In this document: piece after piece, positions 17,904 to 30,709 of the stretch
How positions within the stretch are numbered: position 1 is the first letter of the stretch
Layout: each line of letters starts with the position of its first letter
From: a virus
Taxonomy: Duplodnaviria; Caudoviricetes
Reading direction: 5' to 3' (one strand)
Virus record (IMG/VR): IMGVR_UViG_2706796498_000001
Coordinates: 1 to 64,000 of that record
Length of the DNA stretch: 64,000 nucleotides
The notes under the pieces: model-generated
Databases searched by the model: none
What the model saw: the letters and a program-made list of their open reading frames with translations, nothing else
What the model was told of the DNA's origin: nothing
Made by a program: the position numbers and the translations under genes

Positions 17904-19027
17904 TCACTTTCCCTTGCTTTCATTAGGTAGTTGAGTGCGGACTTTGTAACCTCGGGGTATTTATCCTCACAATAGGACTTAACTAATTCATAGTCACTTG
18001 CATTGTGTTCTAATTCCTCGTCTAAGGCGTTTTCAGACGTTTTAGCAGGGCTAATGGATAATTGTACATGAGCTTGGTTAAAGTCCTTGTATGGGCCACT
18101 CATGAACTCTGACAGGGTATCATTATCACTGAACACTAACTTGAGGTAATTATCCTTGGCTAATTCCTGATATGCTGATACCTTGCTTTCATCATAATCA
18201 AATTGATTAAAGGTAGGATATAGCTTAGACAGATTAACAAAGGTATGCTTACCAGTTAATGTATCAATCTCATCAAAGCCCCGATCAGCCCCACTACCAT
18301 CTTTATTTAGATCATTAAAAGATAAACCCAGTAAATCTCCAACATACCACGCTGGCTTGGGTTGCTTCTTAATAAAGTAACGGTTGTGGTAATGTCCTAA
18401 GATAACGGCTTTAACATTAGGCTGGTCATAGCCTAGATCAGATAAACTATAAGCACCCTCTAGTCTATGTTGCCAACGCCCTTGGACACCACCTTCAACA
18501 CCAGTATGTGCAAAGACAGTAGTCGGACCTTTCATATATTTGATGGATTCTTCAATGTCCTTCTTACTCTGTTCTACATTCTCTGTGTAGGGAACAAAAA
18601 ATAACTTTGAACCATCATTAAGATTAAAGGACTGGACTTTATTAATTACAACAAAACGGCTGTCTAAATAGGGTAAATCAACTAACGAATTAGGGTGTAC
18701 ATCACGCCCCAACTCATCATGATTACCAACATTAAAATATACCTTTGCGTCCTTTGGTAAATTAATCGCACAACTAGCAAGCCAAGCCCGAATATAAGCT
18801 AAGGTAGCTGGGTTATCCCGTTGGCGCTTATCAAATAAGTCACCATTAATTACATAATACATAATACCACGGTCTCGACCGTAACAGAAAAAATAAGATA
18901 AAGCACCTAACAGACATTCAAGCCGGGAACCAGTTTGTGGTTGACCTGAAATTTCTTCATTAAAAGCATTGTAGTTAGTTAAGTGAATATCACTAGCAAC
19001 TAGCAACTTCATCGGCTTCACCCCCAA
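17900..19027 (-). CDS. SbcD/Mre11-like metallophosphoesterase nuclease subunit
   Basis: SDIH, GDLFD, GNHD, AH and GHYH motifs. Confidence 0.88.
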   Translation of the reverse strand: MGVKPMKLLVASDIHLTNYNAFNEEISGQPQTGSRLECLLGALSYFFCYGRDRGIMYYVINGDLFDKRQRDNPATLAYIRAWLASCAINLPKDAKVYFNVGNHDELGRDVHPNSLVDLPYLDSRFVVINKVQSFNLNDGSKLFFVPYTENVEQSKKDIEESIKYMKGPTTVFAHTGVEGGVQGRWQHRLEGAYSLSDLGYDQPNVKAVILGHYHNRYFIKKQPKPAWYVGDLLGLSFNDLNKDGSGADRGFDEIDTLTGKHTFVNLSKLYPTFNQFDYDESKVSAYQELAKDNYLKLVFSDNDTLSEFMSGPYKDFNQAHVQLSISPAKTSENALDEELEHNASDYELVKSYCEDKYPEVTKSALNYLMKARESD

Positions 19028-19029
19028 AA

Positions 19030-19416
19030 CTATGGTAATTCAATGTGTGGTGTTACCTTAACAACTGCAATTCCTTCTTTACCCTTATAGGTTGCATTGA
19101 AAGAAAGCGATTTAATCTTACCTGCCAACCGCTTACCAATGGAACCACGAGAAGAACCCAAGGCTGATTCAGCTTCGCTAACATTGCTAAAGACCAATTC
19201 TTGGAATTTAAGACCGGAATCTAGCGGGGCAAAACTAATCTTAACTCCACCCTTTTGTCGCTTAGTTTGACCTTGCTTCAACTCATTGCACAATGCTTGG
19301 GTTTCCTTAGCCTTTTGCTCTAAATCATCTAACTTCTTAGTTAGCTTATTAATATCCTCTAACATCTTTGGAACTTGGTCACTCAACTTGTTTACTAATT
19401 CTGCTTGATTATCCAT
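19030..19416 (-). CDS. coiled-coil plus NUMOD1-like hypothetical protein
   Basis: heptad N-terminus; F.NVSEAESALG.SRGSI. Confidence 0.6.
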   Translation of the reverse strand: MDNQAELVNKLSDQVPKMLEDINKLTKKLDDLEQKAKETQALCNELKQGQTKRQKGGVKISFAPLDSGLKFQELVFSNVSEAESALGSSRGSIGKRLAGKIKSLSFNATYKGKEGIAVVKVTPHIELP

Positions 19417-19461
19417 TTTACAGTCCTTCTTTCAATTTTTATTAATTCAATAGTCTAGCGA

Positions 19462-19752
19462 CTACTTTGCCTTATCGTCAATCATGTGTTTTAATTCTCT
19501 AAGTAAAGCCTTCCTATTAGTTTTATTACATCGAAGGTCGCTTCGACGAGAATCTAAAAATCGAATCATACTAACTTCGTGTTCACTCAAAAACATCTCA
19601 AAATTTTGCATACAATCTTTGCATAAATCAAAGGGGCAATAGTAACTTTCGTAGTAATCATTATTAACGTGCATATCTATCCAGAAGTCACCATCAGCTT
19701 TTCTTCCACACACATCACAAATATACTGTGTTTCAGTTACTTGTTTTTCCAC
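19462..19752 (-). CDS. Zn-finger hypothetical protein
   Basis: CDVCG...DLCKDC. Confidence 0.7.
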   Translation of the reverse strand: MEKQVTETQYICDVCGRKADGDFWIDMHVNNDYYESYYCPFDLCKDCMQNFEMFLSEHEVSMIRFLDSRRSDLRCNKTNRKALLRELKHMIDDKAK

Positions 19753-21811: not shown

Positions 21812-23680
21812 TTAACCATTTACACCATTATTGATAGTATAAGTAGAGTTGTCTTGAGAAGTTGTGCTAGTGAAGTTAGTGTAAGTACCACTTACAAGAA
21901 TTGTCCGTACTTCACGTGTTGGTGCGGCACTAAAGGCAACATAGGCGCTATTACCATCAATGGTACAAGTAATGCTTTGCCGATCATAACTTGCTAACAG
22001 CCCTTCGCTAACCTTTTGCTTCAAGAATGCTTCGATGAAACTAGCAATTAAACTCCCCGTAGTATTTACTACGCTAGAACCGATGAAGGTATCTTCAAGA
22101 TAGATACGAAGATCATCAAATAAGTAGTCGGTGATTTCCCGGAGTGAAACTAAGTTCTTAACTGGTTCATTCGTGGAGTTGTAAGTAGTAACATCTTCAA
22201 CAATCCGGTAGCCCCCAGATTGGTTGCGGTTAACTACCTTCTCAATTGCGATAACCCCATTATCATCAAGGGCGTTCAATTCATCACCATTGAAATTCTG
22301 ATCAAGGCTAGTTAATTCAAGATACTTGTGGGTAACAGCGTCACCAACACTCAAGGAACTAGCAACCCCCGCTACATAGGCGGCCATTAAGTAAGCGGGT
22401 GCGTGAACGACTTTCCCACTAAGACTATTGTAATACCCAGAGTTAGCTACTAAGGCAATACGATCAGACTTTAAAGCTGTTTGCCGATTGATAGCAGTGT
22501 TCATGCTTTCGTTAAATCCGCCACCAACCCAACCAAAGTAGTTATAACCAAGAATTTCTTCTTCATTTAAGAACTCTTTCAGTTCGGCGTGAATGTTTTC
22601 TTCACTCGTCAACGGAACAATGTAGTAAGCATTGACCCCATGAACGTTCTGGAACTTATCAGCCCAAGAAACTGGTACATTACCATCGCTACCACCAGAA
22701 AGATTAATAGCGTCAAATGGTACAAAGTCAATCTCTTGTGCATTAGCAGTAACTACCGTGTCACTACCACTAGCCTCGGCACTTACACCTGTTGGTGCCC
22801 CTAAGCGATTAACACTAATACCTACATAATCATCATAGCGAGTGGTGTAAAGTAAGTCACCATAAAAGTCGGTAATCGTAGTTGGTGAAGCGCTAGTACC
22901 CAAAGTAAGATAACCACTACCACTGGTCAAGTCCAAAGTGGTTGAATCAATGTTAGCACAACTCTTTAACGTTGTGACGGAAAAACCAGGTAATGCACTA
23001 ATGGCGGTGATAACCTTACCAATGTTATTGTAAGCGGTACTGGTCAAGTCCATCGTTAAGACTGTTTGTGTTGTCGAACTGGACGTATTTAATGCAATTT
23101 CAAAGGTTTGGGCACCAGAAAGATCACCCGTAATCTTATAACTAGCCCCCGTTACACTAGGAGAAGTCGGGTCATAACCAATCGTAAAGAGATTACCAAT
23201 ACTCATGTAAGTTTGAGAATACATCTTGGGTTCATAATCAACATGGAAATCATAAGCCCCAGATACAGGGTTCTTGTTAAATGAAACAGATACCTTATTA
23301 GCACTTGCCCCATAAACCGTAGAAGTAAAAGTTAAAGGCCCCTTGACCAACTTAGCTTGGGTTGCATTTTCAACCCGTTGTGCATAGATTGTCCCACCGT
23401 TTTGGTAGTAGCTACCAGTTGGGTTCCAGATTAATTCCATTGCTTCAACCAGATCACCAGACCCAAAAATGGCCCGGGCTTGGGAAGATGATTTAACTTC
23501 ATAGATATTATCTGGGTTGCCTTCTGTTGCTGATCCTAATAGGAAGATATTCTTGGACGAAGAACCTGCAACATTATTTAATGCGTTATCATTGTATTGT
23601 GTTGCAACGTGTGGACGTGTATTAGTTTCCTTAGGATAAATTAACTTCATCGTTTCAGATGATTTAGTTAGTGTTGCCAT
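21812..23680 (-). CDS. tail sheath protein
   Basis: 622 aa; IFGSGDLVEAMELIWNP, YYIVPLT...IHAEL, EDVTTYN motifs of Herelleviridae sheaths. Confidence 0.92.
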   Translation of the reverse strand: MATLTKSSETMKLIYPKETNTRPHVATQYNDNALNNVAGSSSKNIFLLGSATEGNPDNIYEVKSSSQARAIFGSGDLVEAMELIWNPTGSYYQNGGTIYAQRVENATQAKLVKGPLTFTSTVYGASANKVSVSFNKNPVSGAYDFHVDYEPKMYSQTYMSIGNLFTIGYDPTSPSVTGASYKITGDLSGAQTFEIALNTSSSTTQTVLTMDLTSTAYNNIGKVITAISALPGFSVTTLKSCANIDSTTLDLTSGSGYLTLGTSASPTTITDFYGDLLYTTRYDDYVGISVNRLGAPTGVSAEASGSDTVVTANAQEIDFVPFDAINLSGGSDGNVPVSWADKFQNVHGVNAYYIVPLTSEENIHAELKEFLNEEEILGYNYFGWVGGGFNESMNTAINRQTALKSDRIALVANSGYYNSLSGKVVHAPAYLMAAYVAGVASSLSVGDAVTHKYLELTSLDQNFNGDELNALDDNGVIAIEKVVNRNQSGGYRIVEDVTTYNSTNEPVKNLVSLREITDYLFDDLRIYLEDTFIGSSVVNTTGSLIASFIEAFLKQKVSEGLLASYDRQSITCTIDGNSAYVAFSAAPTREVRTILVSGTYTNFTSTTSQDNSTYTINNGVNG

Positions 23681-23760: not shown

Positions 23761-24693
23761 TTAGTTATAGAAACCAACCTCTGGATTCCCATAGTAAGCC
23801 TTAATACCATTAGCTAAGTCTTTCATATCTGATTGTAGTAGCTTAATATCAGCCGTGGTAGCCGTATTTTCGGCACTTGCTGTGGTGTTCATTCCCGTTG
23901 AAATTCCGTCCATCGAAACATTATAGGAAGCAATCCCAGCCCCGATAATGTTACGACCCCACTTTTCTAGAATTTCAATTGCGGCTAGTTTAGCCACATA
24001 GGATTGGACGTCTGGCTGAATCTGATAGTCATGGAACTCACCAATTCGATCACTAGCCGGCATCATACCCACAACAGATGTTACCCCTAGCATTTGAGGG
24101 CTTACTTCAATCTGTTGGAATGGTGTTGGAGCCATACCATACGGGTTAGAAAGGATTGGGTAGATAGTCGGGTTAATGGTTGTATTTAACCCTTGCATTA
24201 AGATACTAGGAGAAACCTGAATCTGGCCCGAACGATTATTAACCTTGACCCATTCCATAGGAACTCGCATAATCGTTTGATTGTTATAGTACAATGTTAA
24301 ATCTTTTACCGTCAAAATTGGCCGTAAAGTTGTATTCATATAAGCAAACGCATTAAAATCATTCCGGTGATAGTCTAGCCGATCAACTTGTAACCGAGGA
24401 AGAATCGCCAAGTCAAACTTCTTCTCTGTTTGTGAGACTGCCCGAATTAACATATTCTGATAGAAATCATCTGAATAGGATTCACCGGTTACTGGGTCTA
24501 CTAAATCCCTTCCCAAACCAAGTAATTCCTGTTGAATAATATCTTTATTTAACCCTAAATCATCTAGGCTGATATTCTTCCATTTATCATCTAACGCATA
24601 ATCTGGGTTGCCTGTATAATTCTGTAAGCTACCTGCGTCATCTACAATTGTAAAATAATCTTGTATATCTTTTAAAGACACCTTTTTCACCAC
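23761..24693 (-). CDS. head-tail connector / neck protein
   Basis: DPVTGE.YSDDFY, RPIL.V, WGRNIIGAGIAS..SMDGIS..TTASA conserved in Twort-like neck proteins; TATATTAA upstream. Confidence 0.75.
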   Translation of the reverse strand: MVKKVSLKDIQDYFTIVDDAGSLQNYTGNPDYALDDKWKNISLDDLGLNKDIIQQELLGLGRDLVDPVTGESYSDDFYQNMLIRAVSQTEKKFDLAILPRLQVDRLDYHRNDFNAFAYMNTTLRPILTVKDLTLYYNNQTIMRVPMEWVKVNNRSGQIQVSPSILMQGLNTTINPTIYPILSNPYGMAPTPFQQIEVSPQMLGVTSVVGMMPASDRIGEFHDYQIQPDVQSYVAKLAAIEILEKWGRNIIGAGIASYNVSMDGISTGMNTTASAENTATTADIKLLQSDMKDLANGIKAYYGNPEVGFYN

Positions 24694-24714: not shown

Positions 24715-24753
24715 TAAAAGCTCACCACCCATATTGGGTAGTGAGCTTCTTTT
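24715..24753. terminator. intrinsic terminator (bidirectional)
   Basis: AAGCTCAC.ACCC/GGGT.GTGAGCTT stem flanked by A- and T-tracts. Confidence 0.8.
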
Positions 24754-25285
24754 ATAAACTTGCGTATTGGTTTACGTGGAATATCAGCAAACAGACTTTA
24801 TTAGGTGACAGCACCTATCAGGCTTACTATTTGTTCGTCAACAAACAGCTCTGATAGCAAATGGCCAAGGCTGGGCTGGGATCGGTACCCACCAACTTTC
24901 ACTAAGCGTAAGCATAGATTGTAATATACATAACTTGTAAATTTAAATACCGTTAGCTACTCATACACCACTGGACTGTTATACACGTGTTACCACGCTT
25001 CATCGGTAACTACCTTAATGAGACCTCCCGCTTTGGGTCATTCGCTTGTTCAAGGCGATTTAACTACGGGTATAGTATTGTGGTTAGCCAGTCCGTGGCT
25101 ACCCTAAATCCTCAAGCTAATTTCCATGATTACCTCCACCCTAGATTTTTTTCTCTAGTTGGTAACACTATTAACTGTTACTAATTGAAATGGCTAAGCT
25201 ATCGTTTAACCACGTCTTAGGTGCTTTATAGGTAATCATGAGGGGCGGGTTTGCAATACCCTTATCCACCCACTTCAAGTTTACA
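24754..25285 (-). ncRNA. large structured ncRNA (~530 nt), ROOL-like candidate
   Basis: no credible ORF; TTGACG-17-TGnTAATAT promoter at 25320-25292; terminator directly after; ends pair (24755-62/25276-83); perfect 11-bp helix 25125-35/25230-40; many hairpins. Confidence 0.65.
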
Positions 25286-25309
25286 TTTATTATATTAACA
25301 TACTAGAGT

Positions 25310-26059
25310 TTAGTCGTCAAGGATTTCGTGGAACTTTTTTTGTGATCCAAGATAAGTTGGCTTATTTGTCCACATGAAGTAGGCACCAGAATCAGTAGAG
25401 ATAACCAAATGCTTGTTATTAATGATAATTCTACCCATGCTAAACTGGAGTGATGGATCATCTTTATGGTCATCTAGAACTTCCAAAGCCGAATTAATGG
25501 TTTCTTCACGCAAAGATAAGGCGTCTTTGAATATGTTAGCCATATGAATCAAACTCTTAATCTTATCCTCAAAAGTGTCCGTAGACTTACAATCTAATGA
25601 TAAAGACCCTTGTAAGTGTGGGCCATCGACTGTTACAAATTCTTTGGTTACACGCAACTTAAAACCCACAAAGTAAAATGTCCGATATTCTTCCCCGTTT
25701 GAGTTCCAATTCTGTTGGGTCAACCCTCGAGTAAGTTGGCTAGATACTTCCTTCAAAAAGTTAATGGAATCATGTAAGGGATTGTAAGTAACAACTTCCT
25801 CACGTTCATCTAGGGGAGTTTCATTAAGCAAAACCGCCTCCTCAAAGATACTAACTGATGTTGAATCAGTTAGCTGATATACTAGCATAGTACCATAAAT
25901 AAGCTTGCTAATTTTAAGTAATGGCCAACCTGTCTTTTGGCTAACTACTTTAACCTCTTGATCATCAACATCGACCTTCCAAGGAGTAGCCTCCTTATCT
26001 GATACTAAAGCCTCATTAGTTAATGAATCAACTGCTTGAATAAATTCTTTATACTTCAT
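25310..26059 (-). CDS. hypothetical protein
   Basis: 249 aa with AAGGA RBS and cassette promoter. Confidence 0.75.
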   Translation of the reverse strand: MKYKEFIQAVDSLTNEALVSDKEATPWKVDVDDQEVKVVSQKTGWPLLKISKLIYGTMLVYQLTDSTSVSIFEEAVLLNETPLDEREEVVTYNPLHDSINFLKEVSSQLTRGLTQQNWNSNGEEYRTFYFVGFKLRVTKEFVTVDGPHLQGSLSLDCKSTDTFEDKIKSLIHMANIFKDALSLREETINSALEVLDDHKDDPSLQFSMGRIIINNKHLVISTDSGAYFMWTNKPTYLGSQKKFHEILDD

Positions 26060-26924: not shown

Positions 26925-27158
26925 TTAATTGTACATATGCTTGGCTAAAGTGTCTGTATTGTCCTCTAGTGAGCTACTAGGGGTATATTCGTTTTCCTTG
27001 TAAGTTAATGCTACATAGTGACCAGCACCAGCTTTATTAGCATGAGGAAAAGTTTCAACTCGGTAAACAAAGTGAGATTTAATGAAGTTATTCACGTCCT
27101 CGTCCGTATAGTGATCTTCGGGCTTAAACAACTTGATCTTAACAGTCATTATCATCAC
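26925..27158 (-). CDS. hypothetical protein
   Basis: overlaps the polymerase stop; AGGTGA RBS. Confidence 0.6.
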   Translation of the reverse strand: MMIMTVKIKLFKPEDHYTDEDVNNFIKSHFVYRVETFPHANKAGAGHYVALTYKENEYTPSSSLEDNTDTLAKHMYN

Positions 27159-30114
27159 CTACCAAACTATTTTTTAGTTGGTTAAGGTATTCATCATGTT
27201 CCTTAACTAATTGTTCCTTCTTATCTTCATCATCTTCTTTGCCTAAGTCAGTATTAAGTTTATCCTTAGAATACTTAACCTTCTTCGCATAATCATAATA
27301 CCTGTCCATACCAACCCGTTCAATTAGATCAGTATTGTAGTCAAGTTCTTCTCCGTATACGTGGCCAAATTCAATTTCTGCAAAGAGTGGGAAGCGGAAC
27401 TGTTTATCATTAATCTTGTACTTGTCATCAATTCGTAAATCAGGAAAATCAGCAATGTTAAGAATGAAGGCTGGAATTTCTACCTGTTCCATGATTTCCT
27501 TAACTAATCTAGGAACTACCATTACTTCATCAGGGTGAACGTCTAGCACAATACTATCATGAACCGTTGCAACCAATTCTGACTTATAGCCTCGTAGCAC
27601 TTCTCTAACCTTAATCAAGGCGGTGTTAGTAACGTTAGCCCCGCTACCTTGGACAAGCGCATTGAAGGACTGTCGAAGCGCCCTTGCCTTACTACCATAG
27701 CTACCATACTTTGCGTCAGGGAGACGGCGAACGTGCCCCCGAATAGTTTCAACATATCCACGTTGTTCAACAAAATTGTGTACGGCGTCAATGACCTTAG
27801 ATAGGGTCGGCATGGCCCCTAATACCTTTTGCATTGTGTCCTTAGCTTCTTCTAGGCTGGAATGCAATGTTTCAGCTAACCCTTGCTCTGTCTCGCCATA
27901 CATAAGCCCGAAACCTACTGATTTAGCCTTAAAACGTTGGTCAGCAGTAACCTCATCAAAAGGAACATGGAACGCCTTACTAGCATTAGACTTATGAATA
28001 TCGGCTCCGTCCATTAACGTCTGCATAAGCCCTAAATCCTTAGTAATCAATCCAGCCACAAAGTATTCTAGGGACTTGTAGTCAATGTTAAAAATATATC
28101 CATTATCAAACCTAGACACGAATAATGCTTTAACGGGATAATTATAATTAGGGTCATAAACGTTAGAAGTTGGCTTGAGGATATTTTGAATGTTCGGGTT
28201 CTGACTAGCAAGACGGCCAGTCGAGGTTCCTGTAATCTGGAATTTAGTGTGGATAATACTATTGTCATCTAACAAACTACCATAAGAATCAGTAACCCCA
28301 CTCACCATCTTCTTATCCTTAGAGTAAGTAAGTAATAAGTCAGCCAATGGTTCATGATACTTATTCTTTATATATGGTAAAGCAACCTTACGATCAGACT
28401 TATACATCTTCCAAGTAATCTGATCTTCCTTCCCAGCATAGCGGGAATACTTGTCAGATAGATATTCTTTCTCTGGTGGTAGTTCGTACCCCATCATCTT
28501 ATATAAGACATAATTTACATCATCACGACTACCCGGGTTAAATTGATAACCATATAGGCCATTAGTTTTTTTAGAGTATTTAAAGTAGTCCTTAAATTTC
28601 TGTTTCTGTTCTGGGGTTCGATCAGCAGGCTTAATCTGCTTAATCTTTTCCCGCTCCTGAACATAACCCTGACGTTGATGTTCTAGTTCATTGACTTCGG
28701 GGACTGTATCATGAATCTTCTTAGTAATATCTTCTTGTTCTTTTAGGAAGTGGTCGTGATAATTATTTAAATTAGCTCGATCAACCTTAAAGCCAGTGCT
28801 TTGCATAAAGGCTAGAGTTTCTACTAACTTAGGATAATAGTTAAAGACCATATCAAACCATTTTTTGTGTTCTCTAATCTTTGGTAAGAACTGGTGATAT
28901 AGATGTAAGGTAACGTCTGTATCAGCACTAGCATACTTATATAGTAAATCTAAAGGTAGCCATTCAAAGTTAAATTTACCGCCGTCAACTTCGTTTTTAG
29001 GGGGTTCATACTGTGATTTAACAACTCGTTTAATCTCACCCCGAGCTAACTTCTCTTTTTGTTCATTCTCCCAACGATCATGGTGCTTTTGTAAATAATC
29101 TTCCATAGCCAGATCACGTTCATCTTCATAGCCCCCCATGTCCGTAAAAAGATAGGCAAGGTGCTTTAGACCACGCTGTGCGCCCTTTTCTTCGGTGTAC
29201 ATCTCGTAATACATTAGCATGGTATCTAAAACTCTTTGAGCGTGTTTTAGCCCATAAATATCCATTAGCATTTGGAGGTCATAGTTAGCATTGTGCATGA
29301 CTTTCCAATGTGGGGAATCAAAAAAGGATAAAATCCAATTAATGATATAGTCGAACTGTTCTTTTGTCCAAAGGTTAGAATATAACTTGTGTTCAAGGGG
29401 GATTGAAACCCCTTGGTGTTCTTCCCACGACATACTTAGCATGATTGCCTTGGCCCCTGAACGATAGGTTTCTAGGGTATTAGTTTCAAAGTCCATAGCA
29501 ATAACGTGCTTATCTGGTAACGAAGAAACATAATCGAAAGTTTGTTTCACCTTATCAAAATCATCTAATAGTTCATAGCTACCAAATTGTGGGAGAGTGT
29601 TGACAAACCCACCCTTTAAGAAACGATTGATAGTCCGATTCTGAATTAGGTATTGGTCATGTTCAATTGGTGATAATTGGTTTAACCGCCGGAGAGAAGG
29701 GCTAAAGGCAAAGTAAGTGGTGAACCCGTCTAAGTCAATCTTAGTCAGCTCATATAACTTCTTTTTCACCCCTGTACGCTTGCATAAAGCGTTAGCGCAC
29801 CAAGACCCAAACACCACTACAATATCAGGTTTATCCTGTTTGATAGTAAAGATAAGTTTAGTTAGATACTTGTTAATGGTATCAGCTTTAGGCTTAGCAT
29901 AGGTATCTTCGTTAATCATGCGAGGAACTTCCTGAATAAAGAAGCCAACGCTTAACTCATGATCTTTCGTATCTAACCCCTTTTGGGGGTGATTAATCAC
30001 TTCGTTCATCAAGATACGGCCTAGCTTAGAACTAGCAACCTGTTGGGTAACTTGATTATTTACCACTTTGAACATATCTTCCTGATATGAATCAATAATA
30101 ATCTTGATCTTCAT
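27139..30114 (-). CDS. DNA polymerase, family A, with 3'-5' exonuclease and N-terminal UDG-like domain
   Basis: DFETN, HNANYD, YASADTD exo motifs; TGRLASQNPNIQN, DYKSLE, RFKAKSVGFGLMYG, TVHDSI. Confidence 0.93.
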   Translation of the reverse strand: MKIKIIIDSYQEDMFKVVNNQVTQQVASSKLGRILMNEVINHPQKGLDTKDHELSVGFFIQEVPRMINEDTYAKPKADTINKYLTKLIFTIKQDKPDIVVVFGSWCANALCKRTGVKKKLYELTKIDLDGFTTYFAFSPSLRRLNQLSPIEHDQYLIQNRTINRFLKGGFVNTLPQFGSYELLDDFDKVKQTFDYVSSLPDKHVIAMDFETNTLETYRSGAKAIMLSMSWEEHQGVSIPLEHKLYSNLWTKEQFDYIINWILSFFDSPHWKVMHNANYDLQMLMDIYGLKHAQRVLDTMLMYYEMYTEEKGAQRGLKHLAYLFTDMGGYEDERDLAMEDYLQKHHDRWENEQKEKLARGEIKRVVKSQYEPPKNEVDGGKFNFEWLPLDLLYKYASADTDVTLHLYHQFLPKIREHKKWFDMVFNYYPKLVETLAFMQSTGFKVDRANLNNYHDHFLKEQEDITKKIHDTVPEVNELEHQRQGYVQEREKIKQIKPADRTPEQKQKFKDYFKYSKKTNGLYGYQFNPGSRDDVNYVLYKMMGYELPPEKEYLSDKYSRYAGKEDQITWKMYKSDRKVALPYIKNKYHEPLADLLLTYSKDKKMVSGVTDSYGSLLDDNSIIHTKFQITGTSTGRLASQNPNIQNILKPTSNVYDPNYNYPVKALFVSRFDNGYIFNIDYKSLEYFVAGLITKDLGLMQTLMDGADIHKSNASKAFHVPFDEVTADQRFKAKSVGFGLMYGETEQGLAETLHSSLEEAKDTMQKVLGAMPTLSKVIDAVHNFVEQRGYVETIRGHVRRLPDAKYGSYGSKARALRQSFNALVQGSGANVTNTALIKVREVLRGYKSELVATVHDSIVLDVHPDEVMVVPRLVKEIMEQVEIPAFILNIADFPDLRIDDKYKINDKQFRFPLFAEIEFGHVYGEELDYNTDLIERVGMDRYYDYAKKVKYSKDKLNTDLGKEDDEDKKEQLVKEHDEYLNQLKNSLVGDDNDC

Positions 30115-30264: not shown

Positions 30265-30472
30265 GTTTTTACCACCCCCTTAAACTTAATAGTAACATGG
30301 TCAAGCATTTTGTCAATACATTTTTTTAAATTATAATAAATAAAAGCAGGATAGTTAATAACTATCCCACTTAAACAACCTGAACTAATAGCGACTGCAA
30401 AATTTTTACGGGCTAAAAATTATCAAATATCGGTCAGGTTTGCAACGGTTCAACAATATGTTGATGTTGCAA

Positions 30473-30561
30473 CGGAGAATGAGGGATTTGAACCCTCGCA
30501 CCGGTTTCCCGGCCTACACCCTTAGCAGGGGCGCCCCTTCAACCAACTTGGGTAATTCTCC
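30473..30561 (-). tRNA. tRNA-Ser(GCT)
   Basis: GGAGAAT/ATTCTCC acceptor, CCC-CT GCT AA-GGG anticodon arm, long variable arm, GGTTCAAATCC; no encoded CCA. Confidence 0.93.
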
Positions 30562-30636
30562 AAAATGTTGACCCCAAGATCTAGTGGGAATTGAAGTAAT
30601 TAAAAAAGAGAAAGTTTTAATTAAAAGGGTCAACAA

Positions 30637-30709
30637 TGCTAATTACAAGAATCGAACTTGTAACCTCCTGCTTACAAGGCAGGCGCTCTGCCGATTGAGC
30701 TAAATTAGC
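30637..30709 (-). tRNA. tRNA-Thr(TGT)
   Basis: GCTAATT/AATTAGC acceptor, CCTGC-CT TGT AA-GCAGG, GTTCGATT; no encoded CCA. Confidence 0.93.

Follow-up and report, generated by a model that had tools for sequence, protein, structure and literature searches.

The 64,000-nt window analyzed here (positions 1 to 64,000 of the virus record IMGVR_UViG_2706796498_000001, Caudoviricetes) carries a genuine RNA gene of the ROOL family on its minus strand, between a gene for a 249-aa protein and a structural protein gene (Table 1). It is an ordinary member of this family of large phage and bacterial RNAs which assemble into hollow RNA-only cages and which were first described in 2017 (Weinberg 2017, PMC5737381), with cryo-electron microscopy (cryo-EM) structures following in 2025 (Kretsch 2025, PMC12286853; others cited in PMC12990946). 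The family itself has therefore been catalogued already, and what is new in the phage copy is its assignment to a short subgroup, the natural presence/absence alleles and an altered distal loop.

The original prediction, made from the letters of the window, had called a ~530-nt ROOL-like RNA gene in a phage and tRNA context without giving a strand, and had proposed a comparison with the Rfam ROOL and GOLLD models and a search for covariation in homologs. An Infernal scan of the whole window against Rfam 15, on both strands and at the curated gathering cut-offs, produced a ROOL match (RF03087) on the minus strand only, which spanned the full model (1-574, not truncated) at 129.4 bits against a cut-off of 99.1 (E 2e-26; scan repeated). 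Apart from this match only two tRNAs exceeded the cut-offs in the window, while neither GOLLD nor any other large-RNA family did so. Both the family call and its context were thus confirmed, the carrier being a phage with tRNA genes. The size is close to the ROOL norm (~580 nt) at its short end, with 546 nt matched by the model and a 535-nt body.

Projection of the Rfam consensus onto the window gave 113 canonical and 27 non-canonical pairs out of 159, the remaining 19 belonging to deleted elements. The core motifs of the family were all present (GUG.A, a GAUA loop, UGAAG-GNRA hairpin-GUAUAA, GUA..AGUAGC and GUGAAAGUU) and formed invariant columns alongside 29 other ROOLs. A MAFFT alignment with 29 canonical ROOLs recovered these core blocks but misaligned the divergent helices, and pair counts were not taken from it.

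The predicted promoter and terminator were both found, as the original prediction had claimed, and both lie on the minus strand. The promoter is of the sigma-70 (sigma-A) type with 9 of 12 consensus matches plus the TG in a consensus scan, and its -35 element overlaps the last codons and the stop (TAA, 25312-25310) of the upstream 249-aa gene, placing the predicted transcription start at about 25284-25287. The seven sibling phage loci with a ROOL copy (described below) all have this same -35 sequence, and their -10 conforms to TGnTAWTAT throughout. The terminator hairpin directly follows the 249-aa gene in the siblings without ROOL, and is thus common to the ROOL and, in those siblings, to the upstream gene; its stem contains a compensatory U-A to C-G change in two of the sibling loci (L125 and L126). 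The minus strand folds at -157.2 kcal/mol (z -3.6 against shuffles) and the plus strand also folds better than its shuffles (z -3.0), so that folding energy alone cannot choose between them. The minus strand was assigned because the covariance match is restricted to it and the promoter and terminator lie on it; promoter-like matches on the plus strand were weak and no better than chance in the consensus scan.

Table 1. Coordinates of the ROOL gene, its signals and structural parts, and the neighboring genes in the window
Feature	Position	Strand	Remarks
ROOL RNA gene	24752..25297	-	Rfam RF03087 match
RNA body, P1 to P1	about 25286..24752	-	535 nt; ~570 nt including terminator
Promoter (predicted)	25292..25320	-	-35 TTGACG 25320-25315, 17-nt spacer, TG-extended -10 TAATAT 25297-25292
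Intrinsic terminator (predicted)	24716..24750	-	16-bp stem, 3-nt loop, T-run; only terminator-like site in the region
Present/absent segment	24749..25316	-	568 nt: second half of -35, -10, entire ROOL body
P1 closing helix, 5' strand	25276..25285	-	pairs with 24753-24762, 10 bp; direct reading and minimum free energy (MFE) fold
P1 closing helix, 3' strand	24753..24762	-	identical across the siblings apart from the terminal pair at 25285
P3 stem, 5' strand CAUGAUUACCU	25230..25240	-	pairs with 25125-25135
P3 stem, 3' strand AGGUAAUCAUG	25125..25135	-	
Central long-range helix, 5' strand GCCACGGACUG	25089..25099	-	pairs with 24967-24978
Central long-range helix, 3' strand CAGUCCAGUGGU	24967..24978	-	begins directly after the conserved GUAUAA
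Variable linker	24915..24952	-	ROOL hallmark; corresponds to the model's long unstructured loop
Long distal hairpin, P17-P18 (Kretsch numbering)	24812..24859	-	loop GACG; 16 of 18 model pairs canonical
Subgroup-specific 3' motif CCACGUAAACCAAUACGC	24762..24779	-	mini-hairpin CGUA/UACG, 24776-24773 with 24766-24763; in place of P19
249-aa open reading frame, upstream neighbor	25310..26059	-	weak match to phrog_3784; kept in siblings with and without ROOL
310-aa structural protein, downstream neighbor	23761..24693	-	phrog_772, annotated 'tail fiber protein'
Tail sheath gene	21812-23680	-	next after the phrog_772 gene
Family A DNA polymerase	27139-30114	-	
tRNA-Ser(GCU)	30472-30562	-	ARAGORN and Rfam; 5.2 kb upstream of ROOL
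tRNA-Thr(UGU)	30637-30709	-	ARAGORN and Rfam

Covariation and the parts of the fold

The nearest structural counterpart of the phage RNA is the ROOL of the Ligilactobacillus (L.) salivarius UCC118 megaplasmid pMP118, located at NC_007930.1, 178263-178805. An alignment of these two lineages (phage and L. salivarius) was colinear and nearly gap-free, and RNAalifold, run on it independently of Rfam, predicted 99 pairs, of which 40 keep pairing through changes on both sides. Standard pairs were formed in 99.8% of the cells, compared with 85% in shuffled alignments and 33-46% in versions in which the sequences were slid against each other, the latter containing from two to six compensated pairs instead of 40; none of the 500 shuffles reached the observed values. 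The covariation with homologs is strong.

All complementary segments listed by the original prediction are present in the sequence, while their fate as helices varied. The terminal helix TAAACTTG/CAAGTTTA extends to 10 bp (25285-25276 with 24762-24753) and corresponds to the ROOL closing helix P1; the Rfam alignment shifts P1 by 8 nt, so that only 8 of its 16 pairs are canonical, and the register of the original prediction is the better one. The core of the 11-bp helix CATGATTACCT/AGGTAATCATG proved to be the ROOL stem P3, while its eleventh pair is broken in all siblings (25135 A>T) and is specific to this phage, and only about 4-6 bp of the helix are shared by the L. salivarius ROOL. All six P3 model pairs (GAUUAC/GUAAUC) are canonical, two of the four pairs shared with L. 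salivarius are compensated, and the stem encloses three hairpins (25219-25184, 25183-25160 and 25158-25142).

The pairing of GGACTG with CAGTCC, which had been proposed to cross other helices, is real and covaries (CGUCAG/CUGACG in L. salivarius), but it belongs to a nested helix of the family and not to a pseudoknot, since the different bracket types in the cmscan output ({ }, [ ] and ( )) denote nesting depth. The full central helix has 10 of its 11 present pairs canonical, 6 of 11 being compensated relative to L. salivarius, and a covarying helix of different sequence was found at the homologous position after GUAUAA in all 30 other ROOLs tested. The three pseudoknots known for the ROOL family (PMC5737381; P10 and P13 in the cryo-EM models) lie outside the cmscan structure output, which gives nested pairs only. 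A second proposed crossing pair, GTATTG/CAATAC, is complementary in this phage only and is not supported: the change 25257 A>C is uncompensated in all seven sibling copies, and the 3' half of the pairing sits inside the conserved mini-hairpin motif near the 3' end.

A hairpin proposed at 24802-24857 was recovered as the long distal hairpin together with a small covarying hairpin GGUG/CACC at about 24815-24804. In one sibling, a G-C to G-U change at 24842/24833 of the distal hairpin keeps the pair. On the other hand, the hairpin suggested at 25085-25101 (TAGCCA/TGGCTA), for which the complementarity does exist, is not supported, since it is incompatible with two helices of the consensus and its pairing is lost in the homolog from L. 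salivarius. Pairs which occurred only in the MFE fold and are absent from the family model were rejected, most of them being broken in the siblings. The variable linker corresponds to a segment that is disordered in the solved cages and points to their interior (PMC12286853).

The short subgroup and the presence/absence alleles

A search with a core motif of the family retrieved 21 viral and 42 genome loci, with Rfam ROOL found in 34 of the 39 records behind them. The carriers included many phage genomes of 125-160 kb and several Phascolarctobacterium and Clostridia metagenome-assembled genomes (MAGs); a Lachnospiraceae MAG (G033:C6:18354-18880 and 18932-19566) contained two full-length ROOLs in tandem, ~50 nt apart, with 258 and 219 bits. 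The window copy, with 129 bits, was the lowest of the 37 phage and metagenome copies compared, the others scoring 143-349 bits. It lacks three elements of the model, namely the apical hairpin after CCACAAUA, the mini-hairpin after CUUGG and the 3'-terminal GG.GAAG.CC hairpin. Accordingly, the peripheral stems P7 (apical) and P19 (3'-terminal) are absent or replaced. Neither stem defines the family; P7 is described in the literature as "not always conserved", and the apical stem as variable (PMC12286853, PMC12990946).

The low score can be understood from the L. salivarius ROOL, for which a closed hexamer has been solved by cryo-EM (PDB 9J6Y, according to PMC12990946). With 130.4 bits against 129.4, and 543 nt matched against 546, it has practically the same score and the same length as the phage copy, and it lacks the same two hairpins, i.e., the apical stem after CAAUA and the mini-hairpin after CUUGA. 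Where canonical ROOLs carry the terminal hairpin, both have the 3' motif CCACGUAARCCAAUACGC, of which 17 or 18 of the 18 nt are identical to the L. salivarius copies despite an overall identity of about 57-62% and no match at the blastn level. The mini-hairpin within this motif was predicted on the two-lineage alignment but is invariant and has no covariation support; the 18-nt motif did not vary in 16 copies and may represent a mini-hairpin substituting for P19. The two RNAs differ in the distal loop (a GACG tetraloop in the phage, a 10-nt loop containing CUAG in L. salivarius), in the linker, which is longer in the phage ROOL, and in the carrier, which is a lytic-type phage genome, with an own predicted promoter of the RNA, in the first case and a bacterial megaplasmid in the second. 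Since the solved L. salivarius ROOL shows the same absence of P7 and P19, this absence marks a subgroup and does not exclude family membership: the low Rfam score is the mark of a short L. salivarius-type subgroup and not of decay.

Canonical ROOLs, such as the env-120 and Enterococcus faecalis octamers (PDB 9MDS, 9J3T; PMC5737381; PMC12286853), belong to the same covariance family. Like the phage copy, they combine the core motifs with a closing helix, a P3 domain, a helix following GUAUAA and a variable linker, and they lie close to tRNAs in a phage or prophage context. They are longer (539-647 nt in the sample, 581 nt as the family average, compared with about 535 nt), while the phage copy lacks the apical stem P7 (Kretsch numbering) and has its 3'-terminal GG.GAAG.CC hairpin replaced. 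The distal-loop motif GGG-U(C/A)GCU-CCC, present in 24 of 30 canonical ROOLs, is GUU-GACG-AAC in the phage copy. GOLLD (PMC12286853), another large and ornate RNA of phages and prophages that is often encoded near tRNAs, also forms RNA-only cages but is unrelated to the phage ROOL in sequence and fold.

The subgroup-specific 3' motif had no matches in viral contigs, and among its 64 metagenome matches 11 were ROOLs, all of them at least 98% identical to pMP118, with no third lineage. At the DNA level, neither blastn against the phage and plasmid collections nor a search of the viral collection for exact 31-nt matches found anything.

Sibling phages were found in gut and other metagenomes (Logan and ENA; contigs up to 109 kb) via the 249-aa gene, with 76-98% protein identity. 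In seven loci (L116-L120, L125 and L126; four identical) a gap of 620-630 nt after this gene holds the ROOL, while in four others (L121-L124; three identical) the corresponding gap is 86-87 nt. In the latter, the 568-nt segment is replaced by ~23 nt of unrelated AT-rich spacer (L121-L123) or by a slightly longer related spacer (L124); at these empty sites the end of the gene is retained as far as ...CCTTGA, as is the terminator hairpin, with flanks conserved on both sides. Since these siblings are without exactly the promoter and the RNA, the ROOL is dispensable in these phages at the genome level. Where present, it is ~96% identical among the siblings, while the identity of the neighboring 249-aa gene is 85-94%. 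Among the distinct siblings, the linker contains every indel and about half of the variable positions, and five of six substitutions in model helices keep the pairing (G-C/G-U or U-G/U-A), one breaking it.

In the tree of the 249-aa gene, each ROOL-minus lineage groups next to a ROOL-plus lineage, although the support (84/86 and 80/87) is only moderate; this suggests, without fixing the number of gains or losses, an exchange of ROOL-plus and ROOL-minus alleles, and the tree of the other flanking gene gave no resolved branching. Relatives found via the downstream gene (60-93% identity) had no ROOL beside it or elsewhere in the loci examined, phage LpeD had none either, and protein-pattern scans of IMG/VR with three proteins retrieved no relatives.

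The carrier is a complete virus record of 106,071 bp with direct terminal repeats and a single ROOL copy. Its genes include a tail sheath, a family A polymerase and SbcD, and because the tail sheath is ~49% identical to that of Lactobacillus Herelleviridae such as LpeD and Iacchus, the phage is, as judged from these genes, a large myovirus of a Lactobacillaceae host and a distant relative of that group. The best named cellular match of a LysM/Apf-like phage protein was from L. salivarius (52%), and the host genus was left at the level of Lactobacillaceae. The genes around the ROOL are all on the minus strand and follow one another, in the direction of transcription, as family A DNA polymerase, a 180-aa DnaB_C-like fragment, the 249-aa reading frame, ROOL, phrog_772 and tail sheath.

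Several features of this region vary among the relatives. The window and L116-L119 have an uninterrupted polymerase gene (991 aa), whereas in L120, L121, L124 and L111 it is split into two reading frames (e.g., 738+ and 256 aa with a gap of ~315 nt), which suggests an intron or other insertion in some siblings. The 180-aa reading frame at 26233-26775 matches only the C-terminal part of DnaB-type helicases, and siblings carry a Bro-N/ANT gene (254-270 aa) at its position, pointing to a module swap beside the ROOL cassette. The phrog_772 gene and the tail sheath are adjacent in the window and the siblings, making their tail module more compact, while four or five genes separate them in more distant relatives (L114 and L115; 107-139 kb). 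Further upstream, beyond the tRNA pair, the 1.8-kb segment 31769-33590 has almost no reading frames (one, of 74 aa) and no Rfam match at the gathering thresholds.

The stretch occurs in 20 public runs from 11 studies, of which 10 runs are recorded as RNA. ROOL sequence was present in the contigs of each of the four RNA-library runs compared, which come from four studies. In a fermentation metatranscriptome, a 768-nt contig over 24656-25423 had a depth of 156 compared with 5-12 for contigs of the flanking genes (about 14-fold), contig depth being an unreliable measure for ranking. In runs X7 and X8 the contigs cover the ROOL body only, the lack of cover on the flanks not counting as evidence. 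In run X13 the ROOL is followed below the terminator (from 24704) by 146 nt of unrelated AT-rich sequence, so that at least one relative has another downstream neighbor. The RNA-library contigs are consistent with an expression of the ROOL.

Proposed cage formation and alternative readings

Taken jointly, the reading of 25286..24752 as a short ROOL RNA of the L. salivarius type, with its own transcription and the ROOL fold, carried by the phage as an accessory unit dispensable at the genome level, is given a probability of roughly 0.85. The host RNA polymerase would start at the promoter over the upstream stop codon and end at the terminator, yielding an RNA of ~570 nt with the predicted ends. 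This RNA takes the ROOL fold, as the covariance match and the covariation show: P1, the P3 domain with three hairpins, a central domain whose closing helix follows GUAUAA, the hypervariable linker and the 3' domain. By homology with the three solved ROOLs, its copies would then form a closed, hollow and protein-free cage that encloses the linker. The unit would be dispensable for phage growth, as judged from the sibling genomes and not from fitness.

Several points weigh against this reading or parts of it. In the automatic alignment, 27 of the 140 model pairs present are non-canonical, several, but not all, of which were resolved as register slips. The covariation comes from essentially two lineages and hence from a single divergence, and the alignment used for it had also served to derive the structure. 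The RNA-library evidence consists of contigs and not of stranded or raw reads, and as such shows neither transcription, nor strand, nor ends. The distal loop is GACG, compared with U(C/A)GCU in most ROOLs and a CUAG-containing loop in L. salivarius. Finally, no function has been established for any ROOL.

The distal loop matters most for the last step. In the solved ROOLs this loop makes the kissing contact which closes the cage, and the closure is uncertain here because its sequence differs. A true ROOL which stays an open ring (one half-shell), another oligomer or a monomer is accordingly the most serious of the alternatives, even if an unlikely one: apart from the distal-loop motif, the apical hairpin is missing as well, and the E. 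faecalis ROOL has also been seen in vitro as a monomer and as a single-plane tetramer, with the stoichiometry varying within the family (PMC12990946). Yet the L. salivarius ROOL closes to a hexamer with the same architecture, the core is strongly conserved and other contacts between the chains may be intact, so that on the comparison with the solved members a closed cage would probably form. If it does, a hexamer would be somewhat favored over an octamer because the apical stem is absent, as in the L. salivarius ROOL: the latter, of 550 nt and with an 'ultrashort' apical stem, is a hexamer, while the E. faecalis and env-120 ROOLs are octamers (PMC12286853; PMC12990946). It is also conceivable, as a tentative extension, that the phage and megaplasmid ROOLs represent a distinct subgroup which lacks the apical stem and builds hexamers, and which in lytic phages behaves as an exchangeable cassette.

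A decaying, functionless ROOL remnant in a variable phage region might be suspected from the lowest score among the 37 copies, the three missing model elements and the siblings without the gene. This is very improbable, given that the solved and functional L. salivarius ROOL has the same score and the same missing elements, that 40 pairs are compensated between the lineages, that sibling substitutions preserve pairing, and that promoter and terminator are kept around a body conserved at ~96% while the neighboring gene diverged to 85%. Still less credible is a cis-acting leader or processing element of the downstream tail genes which would not exist as an independent RNA. It would fit the position of the ROOL, immediately before structural genes of the same strand, but a terminator with a 16-bp stem stands between it and the next gene, the ROOL-less siblings keep the downstream gene with its ribosome-binding region and the terminator, and in more distant relatives the downstream gene occurs in other settings that have no ROOL. 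A functional plus-strand transcript, which the better-than-shuffled fold of that strand could suggest, can practically be dismissed: the covariance model, the terminator and the conserved promoter all point to the minus strand, and the G-U pairs kept in the covariation exist only in the minus-sense RNA.

Possible role and significance

The ideas published on the role of ROOL RNAs include the encapsulation of tRNAs, ribosomes or other cargo. For the phage ROOL, the best guess, and a speculative one, is that the cage might hold or shield cargo related to translation, for instance ribosomes or the tRNAs of phage or host, in the infected cell. A decoy for a host defence based on nucleic acid sensing is ranked second to the cargo and is a fainter prospect still.

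As one more copy of a catalogued and structurally solved family, the phage ROOL in itself adds little. The explanation of its score by a short subgroup helps in reading other low-scoring ROOL matches, and the changed distal loop makes it a candidate for an altered cage closure, which could mean a new oligomeric state. If the reading as a hexamer-building subgroup and exchangeable cassette is true, the roles to be sought for the cage would include, for example, counter-defence and the handling of tRNA or ribosome cargo. The sibling pairs offer a natural comparison for a functional test of ROOL: with flanks 90-97% identical, the ROOL-plus and ROOL-minus phages would be near-isogenic pairs for finding the role of the cage in infection.

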